Virus record (IMG/VR): IMGVR_UViG_2534681765_000010
From: a virus
Lineage: Duplodnaviria; Heunggongvirae; Uroviricota; Caudoviricetes
Length of the DNA: 18,993 bases
Strand: one strand, 5' to 3'
The notes beneath the pieces were generated by a model. The model searched no databases. It saw only the letters and a program-made list of their open reading frames with translations, and was not told the DNA's origin. Position numbers and translations under genes: made by a program. Of the stretch, positions 1,986 to 18,993 are shown in pieces. The number at the start of each line of letters is the position of its first letter. Position 1 is the stretch's first letter.

Positions 1986-2049
1986 GAGCGTCGTTCGCTA
2001 ATCATGGTCGTCGCCACTATAGCTGGTGGGCGACGACCGGGGTTGAACA

Positions 2050-2829
2050 TTAAAAATCAGCCTGACTCGGGATCAGTTTTTGCCAGATAGCTGAAACGTA
2101 TTTTGCCTGGTAACGGGCGTCATCAAGTGCATTATGGCGCTCACCTTCGAATGGAATAGCCGTTCTGGCATCGAAGCCTATGGCTTTCCCCAGCTCAACG
2201 ATTGTGCGTACATCGCGATCGTTGTAGTAACGCCACGGGCAGGGGATCCCCTGCCGTTCGTATGAACGGCGCAAAATCGTGTTGTCGAAGTTGGCTCCAT
2301 TTCCCCAGACCTGAACAAAAAATTCACCGGAGTTTTCGTCGATAAATTCCCGCAATTGTAACAGTGCATCATCTAACGGGATTTCATCGGTCATAATGGC
2401 AGATTGCGCTTCGCGTGATTGCTTAAGCCACCATTTAATGGTGTCCCGATCAATGACTCCGCCAGCAGTTTCCAGATCGATAGTCTTACTAAATTCCGGT
2501 CCCATATCTCCGGTTTGCGGATCGAAAAATATTGCACCTATTGAGATAATCGGGGCATCGGGATTTTTTCCCATGGTTTCAAGGTCGATCATCAGATGAA
2601 TCCCCGCTCTGCTGGTGGATGTGAGATTATGATGACCGTTTGCCTTAATTAAGGGATCTGACGCCTCGCCAGTTTCACTATCGCTGGCATGATGCTGATT
2701 GCCGCCAGTGTTCTCCTTGTGCTGATGCGCAGTGCCTTCCATTTCCTCCGGATCATTTTCCTGAACTTCAGGCTGATTCTCTCCATCGAATATTTCCTGG
2801 TATGTTGCGTCCCCATCACCGCACCACAA
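2050..2829 (-). CDS. Protein with C-terminal DEDD-type 3'-5' exonuclease-like domain; acidic low-complexity N-terminus, possibly frameshifted from the upstream ORF
   Basis: 259-aa ORF with TTG start; motifs [11 protein letters not shown] ... VWGNGANFD ... [10 protein letters not shown] resemble the three Exo motifs of DnaQ-like exonucleases. Confidence 0.55.
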
Positions 2830-3547
2830 TCAGGGCAGTTGCCGCCACCGCTCTGACCGCAGGCGGTGCAGATCTTTTCCGGTTCCTGTTGCCTACTGGT
2901 TCAGGTTGTTTCGTTTCTGGCTCGTTTTGTTGCGTATTTGGGCTGTTTTGTTCCGCTTTCTGGTCGTTCTGTTCCGTTTCTTGCTGGTTCTGGTTCACAG
3001 AATCGCGGGTTTCAATCCCCTTCACCCATTTCGGATCATTCGGGTCGCTAATCCCTTCAATAAATTCACCACGTGATGCAGCAAGCAACTTATCGGCGTC
3101 AGGCTGGCTGATATTGGCTGCCTGCATAATTTTGTTTACTTCGTCAGCGGTAACTTTTACCGGTTCTGGCTGTGCGGTCGTGTCAGATGCACCAGTATTT
3201 TGTTGTGAACCTGAGCATGTACTGTTTTTGCGGGCGAAATATTCTTCTTTCGTGATTTCAGTAGCCCCGGCAGCCAGCGCCTTATCCAGACCAGAAAGTT
3301 TGTTTGCGCGACCGTATTTTTCGCCATCCTTGTCGGTGAAGAGGAAGTAGAACGGCCCCTCACGCTCTACAGATGGTTCGACTTCCACTTTGCATTCGGT
3401 TTTTTCGTTGTCCGGAATTGCCGTTTCCACTGCATCAGTTTCTGGTACTGGCGACGAGAGAGTATCAGTTGCGCTCTGATTTGTTCCTTCATCTTCAAAC
3501 ACGCCCTTTGTAGTCAGGTATTCAGTAATGTATTTGTTCAGTGCCAC
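2816..3547 (-). CDS. Hypothetical early-left protein, Gln/Glu-rich C-terminus; C-terminal end probably out of frame
   Basis: 243-aa ORF with GTG start; overlaps the downstream exonuclease-domain ORF by 14 nt; a third frame in the overlap zone encodes a zinc-ribbon-like [17 protein letters not shown]. Confidence 0.45.
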
Positions 3548-4530
3548 AGGTCTTTGTGAATGTCGATCGGACGTTCACGACAAGGCCAAAAATAGTCTGG
3601 CGGTCGTAGCGAAGGGATCAGGCTGTTTGCGCATTGATGCCGAGATACGCTTCCAGTCTTCGCGGTCGTTGTGATAACTTCATTTTTTGCCCAGCGATGG
3701 ATGCTGCCGCAATGTTTCCGGCATCATCACCAGGCCAAGAGCGTAGGCCAGTTCTCATCCAGTGTTTTCCATGTCTGCTTGTATTCGCGATGAATGGCAG
3801 CAATGACCGGGTTGATTTTTCCTGTTGAATTTTCAGTGTCTGTTGATTGGCTCTGGCGCGGGCGAGATCAACAACAGACGTGTATTTTCCGGTTTCCTTG
3901 CGTTCACCTTCGCGACGTTTTTTCCAGATGCGCATCTCTGCTGAATTTCGGGCCATTTGGCACCAGGCTTACATTTATGCTTAACCCACCCGATGGCATG
4001 CAGCTTAAGCTCCGGATACATGGCGTTAACTTCTGGCATTTTCATCAACGCTTCAACGATATGTCCGTCGAATGTTGCCATGTCTTCCTGCAACAATTCC
4101 TGCGCGCTAATCACCATATCAACGGTGATTTTTCACATGTGTCGAACTTAACCATGACAGCGTTCTGTACTTCAGGGGCCAGCTTGTCAAAAGTGACGTT
4201 CATCGGATCTGATTCAGTCTCAACCGGGACAAAGGAAGCAGACTCCTCATCCCAGCGGTTTTCCTGCATATATTCAGCATCCCAGGAATCGAGGGCAGGG
4301 CGGGGTATACCGGGTTTATCCTCGCAAACAAGAAATTTATAAGCGCAGTCCTGAGCAGCCGGATAATGTTCCAGGAATTGCCAGTGAAATTTTGCGCGGG
4401 CGCGACGTTCATCACCGGCTTCAATGGCAGTGGCTACAGTGACGGCACCTTCTTCCTTTATTGCCTGTTCGTCCGGAATGGCGGCGCAAATAAAGACTGA
4501 TCTTACCCAGCAATAGTGGACACGCGGCTA
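3548..4530 (-). other. Fragmented early-left coding region: protein-like reading frames that switch frame at homopolymer runs and lack start codons (decayed genes or indel errors)
   Basis: Frame ending at 4111 reads ...FHWQFLEHYPAAQDCAYKFLVCEDKPGIPRPALDSWDAEYMQENRW... with no ATG/GTG/TTG start back to the in-frame stop; ORFs 3833-4117 and 3618-3956 overlap by about 120 nt in different frames. Confidence 0.3.
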
Positions 4531-4587: not shown

Positions 4588-4800
4588 TTACGGTGCTGTT
4601 TTAAGTCCTGCCGGGATTTCGTTATTATCCATGTGAATAACTTTATCGACCGGATAACAGTTACCGGGAATTTTCTGTTCCACTGCGGCAACCATGCATT
4701 CTTTCATTGAGCCGTATACGCCAGTAACCATGTCAACCGGTTCACCGGAAACAAGAAAAACCGTCAGAACAAGTGCAAATGTAGTATTCATTGCCAGCAT
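4588..4800 (-). CDS. Small hypothetical protein with N-terminal hydrophobic (signal-like) segment
   Basis: Internal ATGs at 4798-4800 and 4789-4791 (rc) preceded by aagga; MNTTFALVLTVFLVSGEPVD... The longer track ORF (to 4845) probably over-extends. Confidence 0.4.
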   Translation of the reverse strand: MLAMNTTFALVLTVFLVSGEPVDMVTGVYGSMKECMVAAVEQKIPGNCYPVDKVIHMDNNEIPAGLKTAP

Positions 4801-4994
4801 CCTTTTTGCATCAGGCGTAAACGGGCCAGCATTGAAACAATGCATATTTTATCCAATAGCTCCCGTTCTTGTTTCCTCTTGTTAATGGCATCTTCAGTAA
4901 ATACTGGGTTACTGATAGTGACACCAATTTCAAAACAACCTTCAGACGTATTAACGTTTGGTAATAACGTTTTCATTATCGCACCCTCAACAAT

Positions 4995-5140
4995 GAATTT
5001 TGTGATGCGGTGCCTGGTGCCTCCAGGTGACGTTAACCAGTTAACAATTAACGCCGGATACAGAGAACCCATCCATAACACTGTTTTTGGTTTTAACTGT
5101 TCCGCGTGCGCTCAGCCGCATTCACCGCATCACAAAATTC
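4995..5140. repeat. Perfect 18-bp inverted repeat gaattttgtgatgcggtg (4995-5012) / caccgcatcacaaaattc (5123-5140) flanking a 110-bp palindrome-rich spacer
   Basis: Read directly; spacer contains gttaaccagttaac and cctggtgcctccagg. Confidence 0.7.
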
Positions 5141-5538
5141 ACTTTAAAAAGGGCAGCAGAGCAGTCACGGAGTAAAACTGATACCACCAAACGTCACCAG
5201 AAAATTGATAACAGAGGGCGTTGCAGCGGGGTTGTCACTTAAGCGTATGGTCAACCTGGCAACCCGGTGTCTCAATGGGGGAGGAATAACCCCGCCATAC
5301 TTACCGCCGCGCCATTTCGCGGAGTGCCACAACCGGAAGCGCACGGTCGAATTAAATTTAACGACACCGTACAGTGAGACGAACTTCGCCGTGCGCTTTC
5401 GCGTTATGCCCTGGCTTTTCAGGGATATATCCTTTCAGTAAACTGTCAGTACCGGATTCTTATCCGTGTCCGGCGCACGACCACACGTGGCAGCGTGTTG
5501 GTCTCCATTTTTAACCCAGAACCTCAATGGAGGATAAA

Positions 5539-5748
5539 ATGCCAAACAAAAAAAGAAATCCGCTTATTGAAAAACAGATTGAATGCCTGGTAAATCAACT
5601 CAGGCAATCAGGGTTATTAAAAACTCATTCAGAGTTGAGGCTCACAGAATCAGCATTCGACGATAAATTAAATAATGTCCTTTATAATGGCATTATTGAT
5701 TTTAATCGTTCAGTTGGTCGCCTCGGCCCTGCTGGTGTTTCCTTATAA
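5539..5748 (+). CDS. Small hypothetical protein (69 aa), AT-rich, abuts the convergent 216-aa gene stop-to-stop
   Basis: ggagg RBS 7 nt upstream of ATG 5539; MPNKKRNPLIEKQIECLVNQLRQSGLL... Confidence 0.45.
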   Translation: MPNKKRNPLIEKQIECLVNQLRQSGLLKTHSELRLTESAFDDKLNNVLYNGIIDFNRSVGRLGPAGVSL

Positions 5749-6399
5749 TTACCAGTCAATCCAGAGCGGACCGTGTTCAGCGTAAATATAACTGTACACA
5801 TCCAGATTATATTTGTGGTCTGTTAAGAACAGGCCGCAAATACATGCCGAAGCTTCCAGGGCAGCGGCTCTGTTACTGAATAACCATGTGGCAACATTCC
5901 AGCGTTTTTCTGCATCCCAGTCTTTCTCAAGGCCTGATACCATGAAGAAACCGTTAGTGTTGCCATCAAATAATTCTGTTTCCAGATTTTTAAGCAATGC
6001 CTGATGGACTCTTGCCAGGTATTCCGCCGGAATTTCGCCACGAATTCTGATGAGATTGTCATAAACAAACATGTTCCCCGCATATGGCGATTTTTCTTTC
6101 TTGTTTTTTAAACCAGCATCATGAGCAAACTGATCAATTTCTTCTTCCGTTGGTTTCGTATTGATGTTTTGCGCTGTCGTTTCTGCAATTTTATTTGCCA
6201 CACTATCTGAGTCGTGTTTATTTACAGACGCACAGAAATACAATCCGGTAAACGCATCGCGCACATTACGAGCCATATTATCAGTGTCTTTTTTCGTTAC
6301 CGATTCCAATGCAAGTTCGTTCAGACGATGACGAAGTGTGTGTGCTGCAATCTCCTGGATTGAAGTAGGTAAATCTTTAAATTCCATCGTCAACCTCAT
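5749..6399 (-). CDS. Hypothetical 216-aa soluble protein, second gene of a small operon downstream of the repressor gene (rex-slot cargo)
   Basis: Long ORF with codon-like composition; start overlaps the upstream small ORF stop (TGATG); alternative start MEFKDL with a gagg RBS. Confidence 0.6.
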   Translation of the reverse strand: MRLTMEFKDLPTSIQEIAAHTLRHRLNELALESVTKKDTDNMARNVRDAFTGLYFCASVNKHDSDSVANKIAETTAQNINTKPTEEEIDQFAHDAGLKNKKEKSPYAGNMFVYDNLIRIRGEIPAEYLARVHQALLKNLETELFDGNTNGFFMVSGLEKDWDAEKRWNVATWLFSNRAAALEASACICGLFLTDHKYNLDVYSYIYAEHGPLWIDW

Positions 6400-6632
6400 C
6401 AGTCAGAGTTTCTTGCTAACCAGCGATGCGCGCCAGCTTCGGTTTTAAACGTTTTGCTTTTGGTATACGTCATCGCGGTGAACGTGCCGTCCTGGTTGGG
6501 AAACACGCCGCACACCAGAGATTCGTTGTTGCCAAGATCGATAGTATCCATGTTGACCTCATTTCCCCTTAACGCCGGGGTAGCGGAACAAAAACCTGCT
6601 GCATAGTTATTAAAGTTGAACCCTGCCGTCAT
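6399..6632 (-). CDS. Small hypothetical protein (77 aa, or 50 aa from internal start at 6551)
   Basis: ORF translationally coupled to the 216-aa gene; internal start MDTIDLG has a good gagg RBS. Confidence 0.4.
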   Translation of the reverse strand: MTAGFNFNNYAAGFCSATPALRGNEVNMDTIDLGNNESLVCGVFPNQDGTFTAMTYTKSKTFKTEAGAHRWLARNSD

Positions 6633-6843
6633 GTTCTTACGCCTCGGGCTGGCTACTTAACCCCTGACCACTGCCGGGTAACTCGAAGTATTGCCCTGCA
6701 TTCTGTGGGGTGGAGTGAGGGAATGAATGAGGTTTAGAAAAATGAACTTTACAGGTCAATGTTTTTTTATCAAAACATTTTAAGCAGGCAGCTGTTAAGC
6801 CATCACCACGATGGCATACAGTTAATCAAATAGATGAGGTTGG

Positions 6844-7482
6844 TTAAATATCTTGTTGAATTTTAAAGCATACGCCCAATATGCAAGATAGATCATCCAG
6901 CATAATTGAAGGGTAGCGAGGATTCGTGGGGACTAAAAGAATATCCGGCCCTTCTATCTCCAGTTTACGAATGACAGGTGTTGTGGTCCCTTTGGGTAAG
7001 GCAAGGACAATATTTCCTGGTTGTACGGTTCGATCGGGATCAACAAAAACTGTTGAACCATTTGGGATGGAAACTCCCCCACCAGATGTTGACATACTGT
7101 CACTCTCTAGAACAACTGCAAAGGTATTGGCCGGGATTTCTCCGACAAGCTGCACACAAGAGGTTATTGAGGAATTTTTCATATAATCACTCCAGCTTGC
7201 TGCCTGCTGAAGTGATAGTAGCGGAACCGTTTTTATCGGCGGTAAAGATAGATCAAGCGAATCACCTGTATTTAACTCTCCTCCATTAAGAAGCCAATTT
7301 TCGTTTACTTTCAATATCTTTGCCAGTGAACTTATGTAACGCGAGGACGGCGCTCCTCCACCGTTCATCCATTGACTTACGGAGCCTTTTGATGCGCCAG
7401 TGGCATTGACAAGGTCTTTGCCTTTCAGGTTTAGCGCATGCATACGTTGGGTTATGCGTTCAGATATTGTTTGCTTGCTCAT
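6844..7482 (-). CDS. cI: CI-like prophage repressor (N-terminal HTH, C-terminal LexA/S24-like autocleavage domain)
   Basis: 212 aa; N-terminal LNLKGKDLVNATGASKGSVSQWMNG helix-turn-helix; C-terminal Ser (VLESDSMS) and Lys (VIRKLE) consistent with an S24 Ser-Lys dyad; divergent from the Cro-like gene across an operator-like intergenic region. Confidence 0.85.
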   Translation of the reverse strand: MSKQTISERITQRMHALNLKGKDLVNATGASKGSVSQWMNGGGAPSSRYISSLAKILKVNENWLLNGGELNTGDSLDLSLPPIKTVPLLSLQQAASWSDYMKNSSITSCVQLVGEIPANTFAVVLESDSMSTSGGGVSIPNGSTVFVDPDRTVQPGNIVLALPKGTTTPVIRKLEIEGPDILLVPTNPRYPSIMLDDLSCILGVCFKIQQDI

Positions 7483-7544
7483 GTTTTGATTTTAAAACAC
7501 AGATGGTTTTGTTTCTTGACTTTCTTTGGTTTTGATTATTAAAC
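7483..7544. promoter_or_regulatory. Immunity-region operator/promoter: two 16-bp sites gttttgattttaaaac (7483-7498) and gttttgattattaaac (7529-7544) with a ttgact -35-like hexamer at 7516-7521
   Basis: Repeated partially palindromic sites between divergent repressor and Cro-like genes, read directly. Confidence 0.5.
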
Positions 7545-7573: not shown

Positions 7574-7804
7574 ATGAAAAAATCAGAAGTATTAGGCTAT
7601 TTTGGCGGAGTTGTTAAAACAGCCGCAGTTCTAGGAACGTCAAAAACCACAGTCAGCATGTGGGGGGAAGAGGTTCCGTGGAAATGGGCGTTGCTAATTC
7701 AGGCAGTCACTGCCGGGGCGCTCAAATATGAGTTACACATACCGACGGTTGTCATTCCCGGTTCTGATCATAATCCGCCTTCTAACCAAGGGGGGGATTC
7801 ATGA
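7574..7804 (+). CDS. Cro-like / YdaS-family HTH protein
   Basis: ATG 7574 with ggag RBS; MKKSEVLGYFGGVVKTAAVLGTSKTTVSMW... HTH; divergent from the repressor; stop overlaps the next start (ATGA). Confidence 0.7.
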   Translation: MKKSEVLGYFGGVVKTAAVLGTSKTTVSMWGEEVPWKWALLIQAVTAGALKYELHIPTVVIPGSDHNPPSNQGGDS

Positions 7805-8226
7805 AAATCAAGCATGAACACATCCGCATGGCGATGAATGCCTGGGCGCGTCCTGATGGCGAAAAAGTTCCAGCAGCTGGAATAACCCAGGCTTATTTTG
7901 AGTTGGGTATGACGTTCCCAGAACTGTATGACGACAGCCATCCGGAAGCCCTGGCTCGCAATACCCAGAAAATTTTCCGCTGGATAGAGAAAGACACCCC
8001 TGATGCAGTTGAAAAAATTCAGGCGTTGTTACCAGCGATCGAAAAGGCAATGCCACCTTTGCTGGTGGCCAGAATGCGCAGCCACAGTTCAGCTTATTTT
8101 CGGGAGCTGGTGGAGACGCGGGAGCGACTGGTGAGAGACGCTGATGATTTTGTCGCAGTGGCAATCGCCGGTTTCAATCAGATGAACCGTGGTGGCCCGG
8201 CAGGAAATGCTGTGGCAGTGCATTGA
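7801..8226 (+). CDS. YdaT-like (CII-analogue) regulatory protein
   Basis: 141 aa beginning MKIKHEHI, as I recall for Rac prophage YdaT; immediately follows the Cro-like gene. Confidence 0.65.
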   Translation: MKIKHEHIRMAMNAWARPDGEKVPAAGITQAYFELGMTFPELYDDSHPEALARNTQKIFRWIEKDTPDAVEKIQALLPAIEKAMPPLLVARMRSHSSAYFRELVETRERLVRDADDFVAVAIAGFNQMNRGGPAGNAVAVH

Positions 8227-12449: not shown

Positions 12450-12897
12450 TGCAAAAATTTCCTGTAAAAAATAATTACATACTTAAGATACTACAAAGAA
12501 TAATGCGTACGCAAAATTTTTTGTTGAGTAGAATATGTTCGCGGGGTATTTTTCGTTAAGATATAATTACCATGGTAACTTTTGCGTTGGTAATGCATTA
12601 TGTGGTGGAGAAAAAGAGAGAGTCTTATCTTTAAATTATCGCCAGCCTATATGACTATATGAGTAGTATTTAGATGGGAAATTGTTGAGTTATTGAAAGG
12701 AACCATAACCTTTATGTAAAATTACTGCGGGTGCTTGAGGTTATCTGTCTCAGGCATGCCACCAAAAGGCAGATAGAGAAAAGCCCCAGTTAACGTTACG
12801 CGTCCTGCAAGACGTTTAACATTAATCTGAGGCTCAATCTATGAACGGCAAATCTAGGTTAGCCTCTTACGTGCCGAAAGGCAAGGAGAAGCAGGCT

Positions 12898-13053
12898 ATG
12901 AAGCAGCAAAAGGCGATGTTAATCGCCCTGATCGTCATCTGTTTAACCGTCATAGTGACGGCACTGGTAACGAGGAAAGACCTCTGCGAGGTACGAATCC
13001 GAACCGGCCAGACGGAGGTCGCTGTCTTCACAGCTTACGAACCTGAGGAGTAA
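12898..13053 (+). CDS. hokD: Hok/Gef-family type I toxin (51 aa), HokD/RelF-like
   Basis: MKQQKAMLIALIVICLTVIVTALVTRKDLCEVRIRTGQTEVAVFTAYEPEE: single TM helix then the conserved RKxLCE..R....EVA.F.AYE Hok pattern; aaggag RBS 10 nt upstream. The track ORF start at 12841 is an in-frame extension that is probably not translated. Confidence 0.7.
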   Translation: MKQQKAMLIALIVICLTVIVTALVTRKDLCEVRIRTGQTEVAVFTAYEPEE

Positions 13054-18917: not shown

Positions 18918-18993
18918 GGCCCTTTAGCTCAGTGGTGAGAGCGAGCGACTCATAATCGCCAGGTCGCTGGTTCAAATCCAGCAAGGGCCACCA
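18918..18993 (+). tRNA. tRNA with CAU anticodon, Ile2 (lysidine)-like by resemblance to E. coli ileX/ileY; Met cannot be excluded from the anticodon alone
   Basis: 76 nt ending CCA; acceptor stem ggccctt/aagggcc; D-arm gctc...gagc; anticodon loop ctCATaa; T-arm gctgg-ttcaaat-ccagc. Folded by eye. Confidence 0.85.

Follow-up and report, generated by a model that had tools for sequence, protein, structure and literature searches.

When genes follow a prophage repressor gene on the same strand, do they extend the repressor transcript, as rexA and rexB do in lambda, or do they belong to a unit that the repressor shuts off? The question arises for the interval 5539–6632, with its flanks, of the virus record IMGVR_UViG_2534681765_000010, a stretch of 18,993 nucleotides (here called the window; all positions refer to it). 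A preliminary description of this DNA placed three open reading frames (ORFs) in the interval, a small one and one of 216 codons downstream of cI and one of 69 codons on the opposite strand, and assigned the first two to the rex slot. The three ORFs are present as described. The assignment to the rex slot is not retained: as read from sequence comparison, the interval is the promoter-proximal part of an early-left operon of the Qin/Rac type (dicBF, the equivalent of the lambda PL operon), and not a rex-like extension of the cI transcript. Taken alone, this architectural part of our explanation is very probably correct. On the same comparison, positions 5480–6405 are an exchangeable cassette in the ydfB/ydfC slot. 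One of its two parts encodes an early protein, in which a specific C-terminal domain is attached to a widely shared N-terminal module; the other is the facing 69-residue gene, with a putative weak promoter and a conserved leader of its own. The explanation as a whole, in which this operon carries a cognate pair of proteins with mutually exclusive lysogenic and lytic expression, is tentative, and we place it a little short of an even chance.

The features that identify the operon are as follows.

6844–7482, minus strand: cI-type repressor of 212 residues (Pfam Peptidase_S24, E 2e-13, and HTH_3, E 1.7e-4; phrog_4, transcriptional repressor).
6760–6777, no strand: left operator, an exact 18-bp palindrome TGTTTTTTTATCAAAACA (TGTTTT-N6-AAAACA).
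6746–6773, minus strand: putative promoter equivalent to PL or dicBp, TTGATA-16-TAAAGT, a consensus match with its –35 element inside the operator.
6399–6551 (open frame to 6632), minus strand: YdfA-family DUF1391 gene of 50 residues, gene 1 of the early-left operon (Pfam DUF1391, 101.5 bits).
5151–5202, minus strand: the small RNA DicF, downstream in the same leftward operon (Rfam RF00039, 66.9 bits against a gathering score of 48).
4788–4976, minus strand: dicB, cell-division inhibitor (Pfam DicB, 130 bits; Prokaryotic Genome Annotation Pipeline (PGAP) annotation of an identical locus).
4588–4791, minus strand: ydfD-like DUF1482 gene (Pfam DUF1482, 80.6 bits; PGAP annotation of an identical locus).

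The identity of the first gene is well defined. The maximal frame at 6399–6632 would encode 77 residues, while the 50-residue form starting from 6551 is backed by the PGAP annotation of the identical locus in Escherichia coli E1433 and by K-12 YdfA, to which the product is 92% identical. Thus, of the two genes that had been put forward as unrecognised cargo, the small one is the known YdfA/DUF1391, and only the 216-residue protein falls in no described family. In the window, Pfam and Rfam locate YdfA/DUF1391, DicF, DicB and DUF1482 on one strand, in the order of the Qin operon ydfA-ydfB-ydfC-dicF-dicB-ydfD. The window DNA is 93% identical to that of Qin at 6589–6406 and again at 5479–4936, on both flanks of the cassette, and 5480–6405 therefore takes the place of ydfB and ydfC; neither the 216-residue nor the 69-residue protein has significant similarity to YdfB or YdfC. 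A leftward transcript from the operator-covered promoter would read ydfA (DUF1391), the gene for the 212- or 216-residue protein, the antisense of the 69-residue gene, DicF, dicB and ydfD.

The resemblance to Qin dicBF thus extends over the repressor gene, the operator-covered promoter, ydfA, a set of variable small genes, DicF, DicB and DUF1482, all in the same order and on the same strand, and Qin also carries the promoter and leader element described below. The two differ in that the window has the 212/216-residue gene and the facing 69-residue gene where Qin has ydfB and ydfC, in that the repressor is a 212-residue cI of the S24 type and not DicA, in the operator sequence, and in that the Qin leader has no ORF behind it.

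The operator lies 66 bp beyond the cI stop codon (6844), and these 66 bp are empty. Its sole other exact copy is at 7482–7499, between cI and cro, so that exact copies occur only in the two intergenic regions flanking cI. Because the operator overlaps the leftward –35 element between cI and the genes in question, ydfA and the 216-residue gene would be under the control of a repressed promoter of the PL type. The layout is that of dicBp in Qin, which has lambda-like operators, is repressed 22-fold by DicA, and gives a single polycistronic RNA from ydfA through dicF (PMC10448788). We therefore predict that the main control of the early-left genes is repression in the lysogen, and expect the 216-residue gene to be expressed in lytic or derepressed conditions and not in lysogens. 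Imperfect operator-like sequences adjoin the exact palindromes at 6731–6746 (GTTTAGAAAAATGAAC) and 7527–7544 (GTTTTGATTATTAAAC), near the leftward and rightward –10 regions, and may be second operators.

A rex-like operon, expressed in lysogens by co-transcription with cI and encoding the small ORF and the 216-residue protein, would fit the facts that these genes lie on the same strand as cI and immediately downstream, that cI has no canonical intrinsic terminator behind it by a consensus scan, and that the 216-residue protein has no assigned function. As in lambda, the site is one where a prophage holds accessory genes. However, an operator and a promoter separate cI from these genes, which begin with that for YdfA and follow the order of the DicA-repressed dicBF operon. 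In lambda, by contrast, rexA and rexB are expressed from the maintenance transcript, and their place is between cI and the left operator and promoter (OL/PL), on the near side of OL as seen from cI. Searches of Pfam, NCBIfam, PADLOC and PHROGs gave no similarity to RexA, RexB or any other described exclusion or defence protein. The rex-like explanation is already disfavoured by the sequence, and we regard it as very improbable. The suggestion of an accessory-gene hotspot survives in part: the region is indeed variable and accessory, but the slot is the one equivalent to sieB, inside the early-left operon, and not the rex slot.

Convergent genes are already known from this part of the early-left operon. 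In lambda, sieB (34482–35036, plus strand) and N (complement 35037–35438) meet stop to stop; the Rac sieB runs 4 nt into the 3' end of ydaF, a DUF1391 gene. In each case a gene on the opposite strand of the early-left operon has its 3' end abutting or overlapping a promoter-proximal PL gene, and in Rac even the bounding landmarks are the same, namely the DUF1391 gene on one side and, on the other, the region that precedes the division-inhibitor small RNA. The 69-residue gene nevertheless has no sequence similarity to sieB (its only PHROG match is phrog_4274, and it has no Pfam match), and sieB is much longer, at 555 nt in lambda and 489 nt in Rac. SieB is a membrane protein, while the 69-residue product is small and predicted to form two helices. 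Nor does sieB have a known cognate partner domain on the other strand. The leader described below was sought upstream of sieB in Rac and lambda, where the sequence differs.

The cassette itself contains the following elements.

6103–6387, minus strand: N-terminal module of the 212/216-residue protein, with an MEFKDLP start, helical, approximately residues 1–85, common to many short prophage proteins with other C-termini.
5749–6102, minus strand: C-terminal domain (C-domain) including the stop codon, approximately residues 96–212, a strand-strand-helix-strand-strand-helix-strand sandwich (AlphaFold2 (AF2) core predicted local distance difference test score (pLDDT) 75–86).
5539–5748, plus strand: convergent gene for a 69-residue protein, predicted to form two helices, with a conserved C-terminus GPAGV-x-L (phrog_4274; ratio of nonsynonymous to synonymous substitution rates (dN/dS) 0.16–0.25).

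The longer gene (5749–6399) encodes 216 residues from an ATG that overlaps the DUF1391 stop codon (TGATG). A second ATG lies 12 nt downstream, is preceded by a GAGG ribosome-binding site, and gives the 212-residue form; this is the start used by the homologues and by PGAP. PHROG and exhaustive searches divide the protein into two modules. Many short prophage proteins, some of them from Stx phages, carry the N-module ahead of unrelated C-termini. Where copies have the C-domain in common, their N-modules have diverged much further than their C-domains (synonymous divergence, dS, of 0.83 against 0.44), which indicates a mosaic joint between the two. The C-domain is recognisable by the motifs SPYxxNMFVYDxLI, FDGxxNGxF and WxFSxxxAAxEA, and has a dN/dS of 0.15–0.24.

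The C-domain also occurs apart from this N-module. In the Salmonella element L003 it stands alone (6211–6627), the N-module being deleted, and in further Salmonella elements (protein P0180) it carries a different N-terminus and lies directly after cox. In protein P0174 (loci L012–L014, 5001–5861) it follows a cI-like HTH_3 domain (Pfam 26.2 bits), which is 41% identical to the N-terminus of the window cI. This last fusion hints that the C-domain may be a regulatory or partner-binding module. The distant Salmonella C-domains, from elements with the order int, C-domain, cox, are about 36% identical. The predicted fold has a weak, non-significant likeness to sandwiches of the ACT and ArgR-C types, which is likewise in favour of such a module. 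An antiterminator resembling N was considered and set aside: by inspection there is no arginine-rich N-terminus and no nut-like site was seen, although no dedicated search was run.

Neither the 216-residue nor the 69-residue protein is matched in Pfam, NCBIfam or PADLOC, and their PHROGs (phrog_2151 and phrog_4274 respectively) are of unknown function. They belong to no described family, as had been noted for the longer one. The remote-homology search gave no family that would supply a function, and the relatives are unnamed apart from the label "Ybl81". Searches of PADLOC, Pfam and NCBIfam, and PDB sequence and fold searches, gave no toxin, antitoxin or defence family for either protein.

The facing gene has a GGAGG sequence 5 nt upstream of its ATG and is AT-rich, as had been noted (GC content approximately 35–40%). 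Its stop codon (TAA, 5746–5748) is immediately adjacent to that of the longer gene (TTA, 5749–5751). This stop-to-stop junction is real and conserved across copies: it has zero bases between the genes in all E. coli and close Salmonella copies examined, including L003, and becomes an overlap of 11–53 nt in distant relatives. The low dN/dS of both ORFs, together with the retention of the zero-base junction, marks them out as genuine genes and not chance ORFs. In agreement with the earlier description, a simple consensus scan finds no terminator between them on either strand; the sole nearby candidate, at 5723–5735 on the plus strand, is weak and lies within the 69-residue ORF. Antisense or convergent control of the junction genes, as first suggested, is a reasonable inference, with the modification that the candidate for expression in lysogens is the 69-residue gene rather than the 216-residue one.

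The distribution of the two genes gives the main argument for a joint function. The small gene is present in 597 complete E. coli genomes, about 11% of all such genomes, including O157:H7 EDL933, which carries a 99% copy, and in 594 of the 597 the junction of small gene and C-domain is covered over at least 80% of its length. Every occurrence of the C-domain is faced by a homologue of the 69-residue gene. The pair persists in the lambdoid dicBF context, in the Salmonella context that has lost the N-module, and in the int-C-cox elements, where the N-terminus is new; the distant small proteins are 42–51% identical, and retain SGLLK as well as the C-terminal motif. Synonymous divergence is similar in the two (dS 0.37–0.64 for the small gene and 0.44–0.74 for the C-domain), and dN/dS is low in both. 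By word-indexed, profile and exhaustive phmmer searches, relatives of the pair are confined to Escherichia and Salmonella. That the pair should persist while the N-terminal fusion and both flanks change argues for a joint function, without proving it. It may be added that L003 contains two tandem convergent modules (5226–6627), each with its own copy of the leader: in module 1 the lone C-domain gene faces the 69-residue homologue, and in module 2 a gene of the MEFKDLP type (119 residues) faces a 64-residue ORF beginning MSEQELKLG.

Two further elements lie upstream of the small gene.

5452–5538, plus strand: conserved leader of the 69-residue gene, 87 nt, with three predicted hairpins: hairpin 1 at 5452–5474, hairpin 2 at 5479–5503, and a third in which an anti-Shine-Dalgarno (anti-SD) sequence CTCCAT (5503–5508) pairs with, and so masks, the Shine-Dalgarno (SD) sequence ATGGAG (5527–5532).
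5416–5444, plus strand: putative promoter of the small gene, TTTTCA-17-TAAACT, with a conserved –10-like hexamer and a predicted start near 5451.

The leader is conserved even in distant elements. Hairpin 1 (CCGGAT...GTGTCCGGC) is invariant, whereas the stem of hairpin 2 comes in at least four sequences, with pairing kept in each. The anti-SD/SD pair CTCCAT/ATGGAG covaries as CTCCT/AGGAG in another type of leader, and the pair 58/80 is AU 21 times and UA 11 times; the SD is paired in 24 of the 32 predicted folds. A U.G pair in hairpin 1 fits only an RNA of the plus strand. The –10-like hexamer, often extended by TG, is found approximately 7 nt (5–7) upstream of hairpin 1 in at least eight unrelated upstream contexts, and this conserved spacing suggests that the transcript starts near 5451. 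Three other readings of these elements were rejected. A second –10-like sequence, TAAAAT, overlaps the start codon, and a transcript from it would begin inside the ORF; a put-like antiterminator on the operon strand disagrees with the SD/anti-SD covariation and the U.G pair, both of which point to the plus strand; and an RNase III site for DicF disagrees with the mapped RNase III site, at around 5336 of the window. Rfam has no match to the leader: a cmscan of 5050–6900 at E up to 5 returned DicF and two matches elsewhere at the level of chance. A 10-bp palindrome GGATATATCC within the spacer of the putative promoter (5423–5432) is perfect here but not in many other copies, and may be a regulator site or due to chance.

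The leader is not specific to the 69-residue gene. In a scan of IMG/VR, the same leader precedes at least 12 unrelated families of small ORF (here called cargos), of 57–101 residues, and 8 of the 10 cargo families tested are recurrent PHROGs of unknown function. Most cargos face a gene of the MEFKDLP type with a cargo-specific tail. The segment comprising the promoter and hairpin 1 is present in 2576 of 5426 complete E. coli genomes (approximately 47%). A scan of genome contigs with a degenerate leader pattern was swamped by chance matches in GC-rich genomes. In one group of IMG/VR loci, including L107, the cargo is a 94-residue protein (MAKFTVRIELRD...) that scores 21.2 bits, just over the cut-off of 21, against Pfam GhoS, a type V antitoxin RNase, and a 101-residue cargo shares a PHROG (phrog_8894) with it.

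Sequence and comparison thus establish the operon identity, the operator, the limits of the cassette, the strict linkage, purifying selection on both genes and the shared leader with its covariation; promoter activity, the timing of expression, physical interaction and biological role are proposals. On the basis of these observations, we propose the following working of the locus. In the lysogen, PL would be shut, and the small gene alone could be expressed from its own weak promoter, its translation tempered by the SD-masking hairpin. On derepression, strong transcription from PL would run head-on through the small gene and its leader, since nothing separates the two units, and collision together with a full-length antisense RNA would turn off the small gene during synthesis of the C-domain protein. 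The 69-residue protein would be a ligand or antagonist of the C-domain, the two forming a cognate pair; this is proposed because of the conserved pairing, and because the HTH fusion suggests a partner-binding or regulatory domain. The pair might serve as a safety lock, in exclusion or in regulation. Mutually exclusive expression from face-to-face promoters is found in convergent-transcription switches such as ant/sar of P22 and pR/pL of coliphage 186, and in 'excludon' loci. As in those cases, RNA made from either unit here would be antisense to the other. The present arrangement differs in that those systems use short antisense RNAs or closely spaced promoters, while here the facing units are two protein genes about 1.3 kb apart.

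Several observations weigh against this explanation. The cI gene is not followed by a canonical terminator, and its transcript may read through to some extent. Both promoters are consensus matches, that of the cargo having a poor –35 element, and the leader folds only modestly better than shuffled sequences (z –1.76). The AF2 models are mediocre overall (pLDDT 65 for the 216-residue protein and 60 for the 69-residue protein), fold searches and PDB sequence and profile searches with both gave nothing significant, the PDB profile searches being empty, and contact between the C-domain and the 69-residue protein is something that we infer. Strict linkage of adjacent genes is also what block inheritance in mosaic prophages would produce. 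None of 50,697 deposited phage genomes has the module, which may therefore survive mainly in defective prophages. Finally, Qin of K-12 (L002, approximately 2290–2345) keeps the promoter and leader with no ORF behind them, and some cargos have no N-module partner, or no partner gene at all (gap of 144–186 nt, or none), so that the platform does not need a protein pair.

Some of these points are accommodated by two other explanations. According to one, the two genes are independent accessory genes (morons) that are merely adjacent: the 216-residue protein would be an early-left accessory protein and the 69-residue protein a separate cargo expressed in lysogens, like sieB beside N, with the junction reflecting compactness only and the linkage reflecting inheritance in mosaic blocks. 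The convergent pairs sieB/N in lambda and sieB/ydaF in Rac indeed abut with no functional connection known between them, neighbouring stretches of DNA should be inherited together, and the leader carries its dozen or more unrelated cargos with or without partners. Mere adjacency does not readily explain why the pair is kept in three different surroundings, and down to about 36% identity in the C-domain and 42–51% in the small protein, when the neighbouring N-module recombines freely. We consider it unlikely, though it keeps real weight.

According to the other explanation, the facing promoter and leader would themselves be the functional unit, and antisense transcription from them would insulate the toxic DicF and DicB from leaky PL transcription or cI read-through in lysogens, with the ORFs as passengers. 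This would suit not only the Qin leader but also the commonest class in the IMG/VR sample, which has the promoter and leader without a cargo ORF, as well as the presence of promoter and hairpin 1 in nearly half of complete E. coli genomes and the lack of a terminator between cI, PL and the cassette. Spontaneous firing of dicBp in a subpopulation, with toxic products, is also described (PMC10448788). However, the cargo ORFs show purifying selection and turn up repeatedly as PHROG families, a covarying helix that masks the SD makes sense only for a translated gene, and the cargo promoter looks weak. We regard this explanation as decidedly unlikely.

Returning to the cognate pair, a wider system can be imagined, undescribed and polymorphic, in Rac/Qin-type and some cox-type enterobacterial prophages. 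Here a constant promoter and leader would express interchangeable small proteins in lysogens, each matched to the variable C-domain of an early lytic protein encoded head-on, as couples of effector and antagonist resembling immunity pairs. This is a speculative extension with a small chance of being right. If it is true, the pairs would keep the lytic effector locked in lysogens and also counteract that effector when it arrives with related superinfecting phages, giving allele-specific exclusion or kin recognition that is switched by convergent transcription.

The operon, YdfA, DicF, DicB and the sieB-like geometry are already known, and dicBF is among the best-studied of cryptic-prophage loci, on account of the toxic DicF and DicB. 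Literature searches for Ybl81, for the WP accessions and for the hotspot found no description of the 212/216-residue protein, of the 69-residue protein, of their obligatory pairing or of the leader platform. The variable DNA ahead of dicF is drawn as "not conserved" genes only (PMC5069750). The present comparison indicates that this stretch is an organised exchange site, in which a conserved promoter and leader present varied small ORFs against the direction of the early operon, and in which at least one cargo, the 69-residue gene, is accompanied by a cognate domain encoded on the opposite strand. Should the small proteins be expressed in lysogens, they would be an untapped source of prophage conversion or exclusion functions, and a new input to the control of DicF and DicB. 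Should they not be, a plausible but wrong rex-like annotation is still corrected.

A few features of the surrounding DNA may be added. Between 2041 and 14245 the window is 98.9% identical overall to the prophage of E. coli E1433, with 27 gap openings. The RecE/YdfE-like exonuclease (2041–4510) is a single coding sequence of 823 residues in E1433 and several ORFs in the window, as a result of either frameshift decay or assembly indels. A gene of the YdaT family (7801–8226, plus strand) follows cro, as in Rac, and is annotated by PGAP as "toxin YdaT family protein" in the near-identical E1433 locus. The antisense RNA sok, a marker of loci of the hok/sok type, is found at 12729–12903 on the plus strand (Rfam, 108.7 bits), and PGAP annotates hokD at the matching place in the E1433 prophage. 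The right end of the window holds a tRNA gene at 18918–18990 on the plus strand (Rfam, 72.5 bits).

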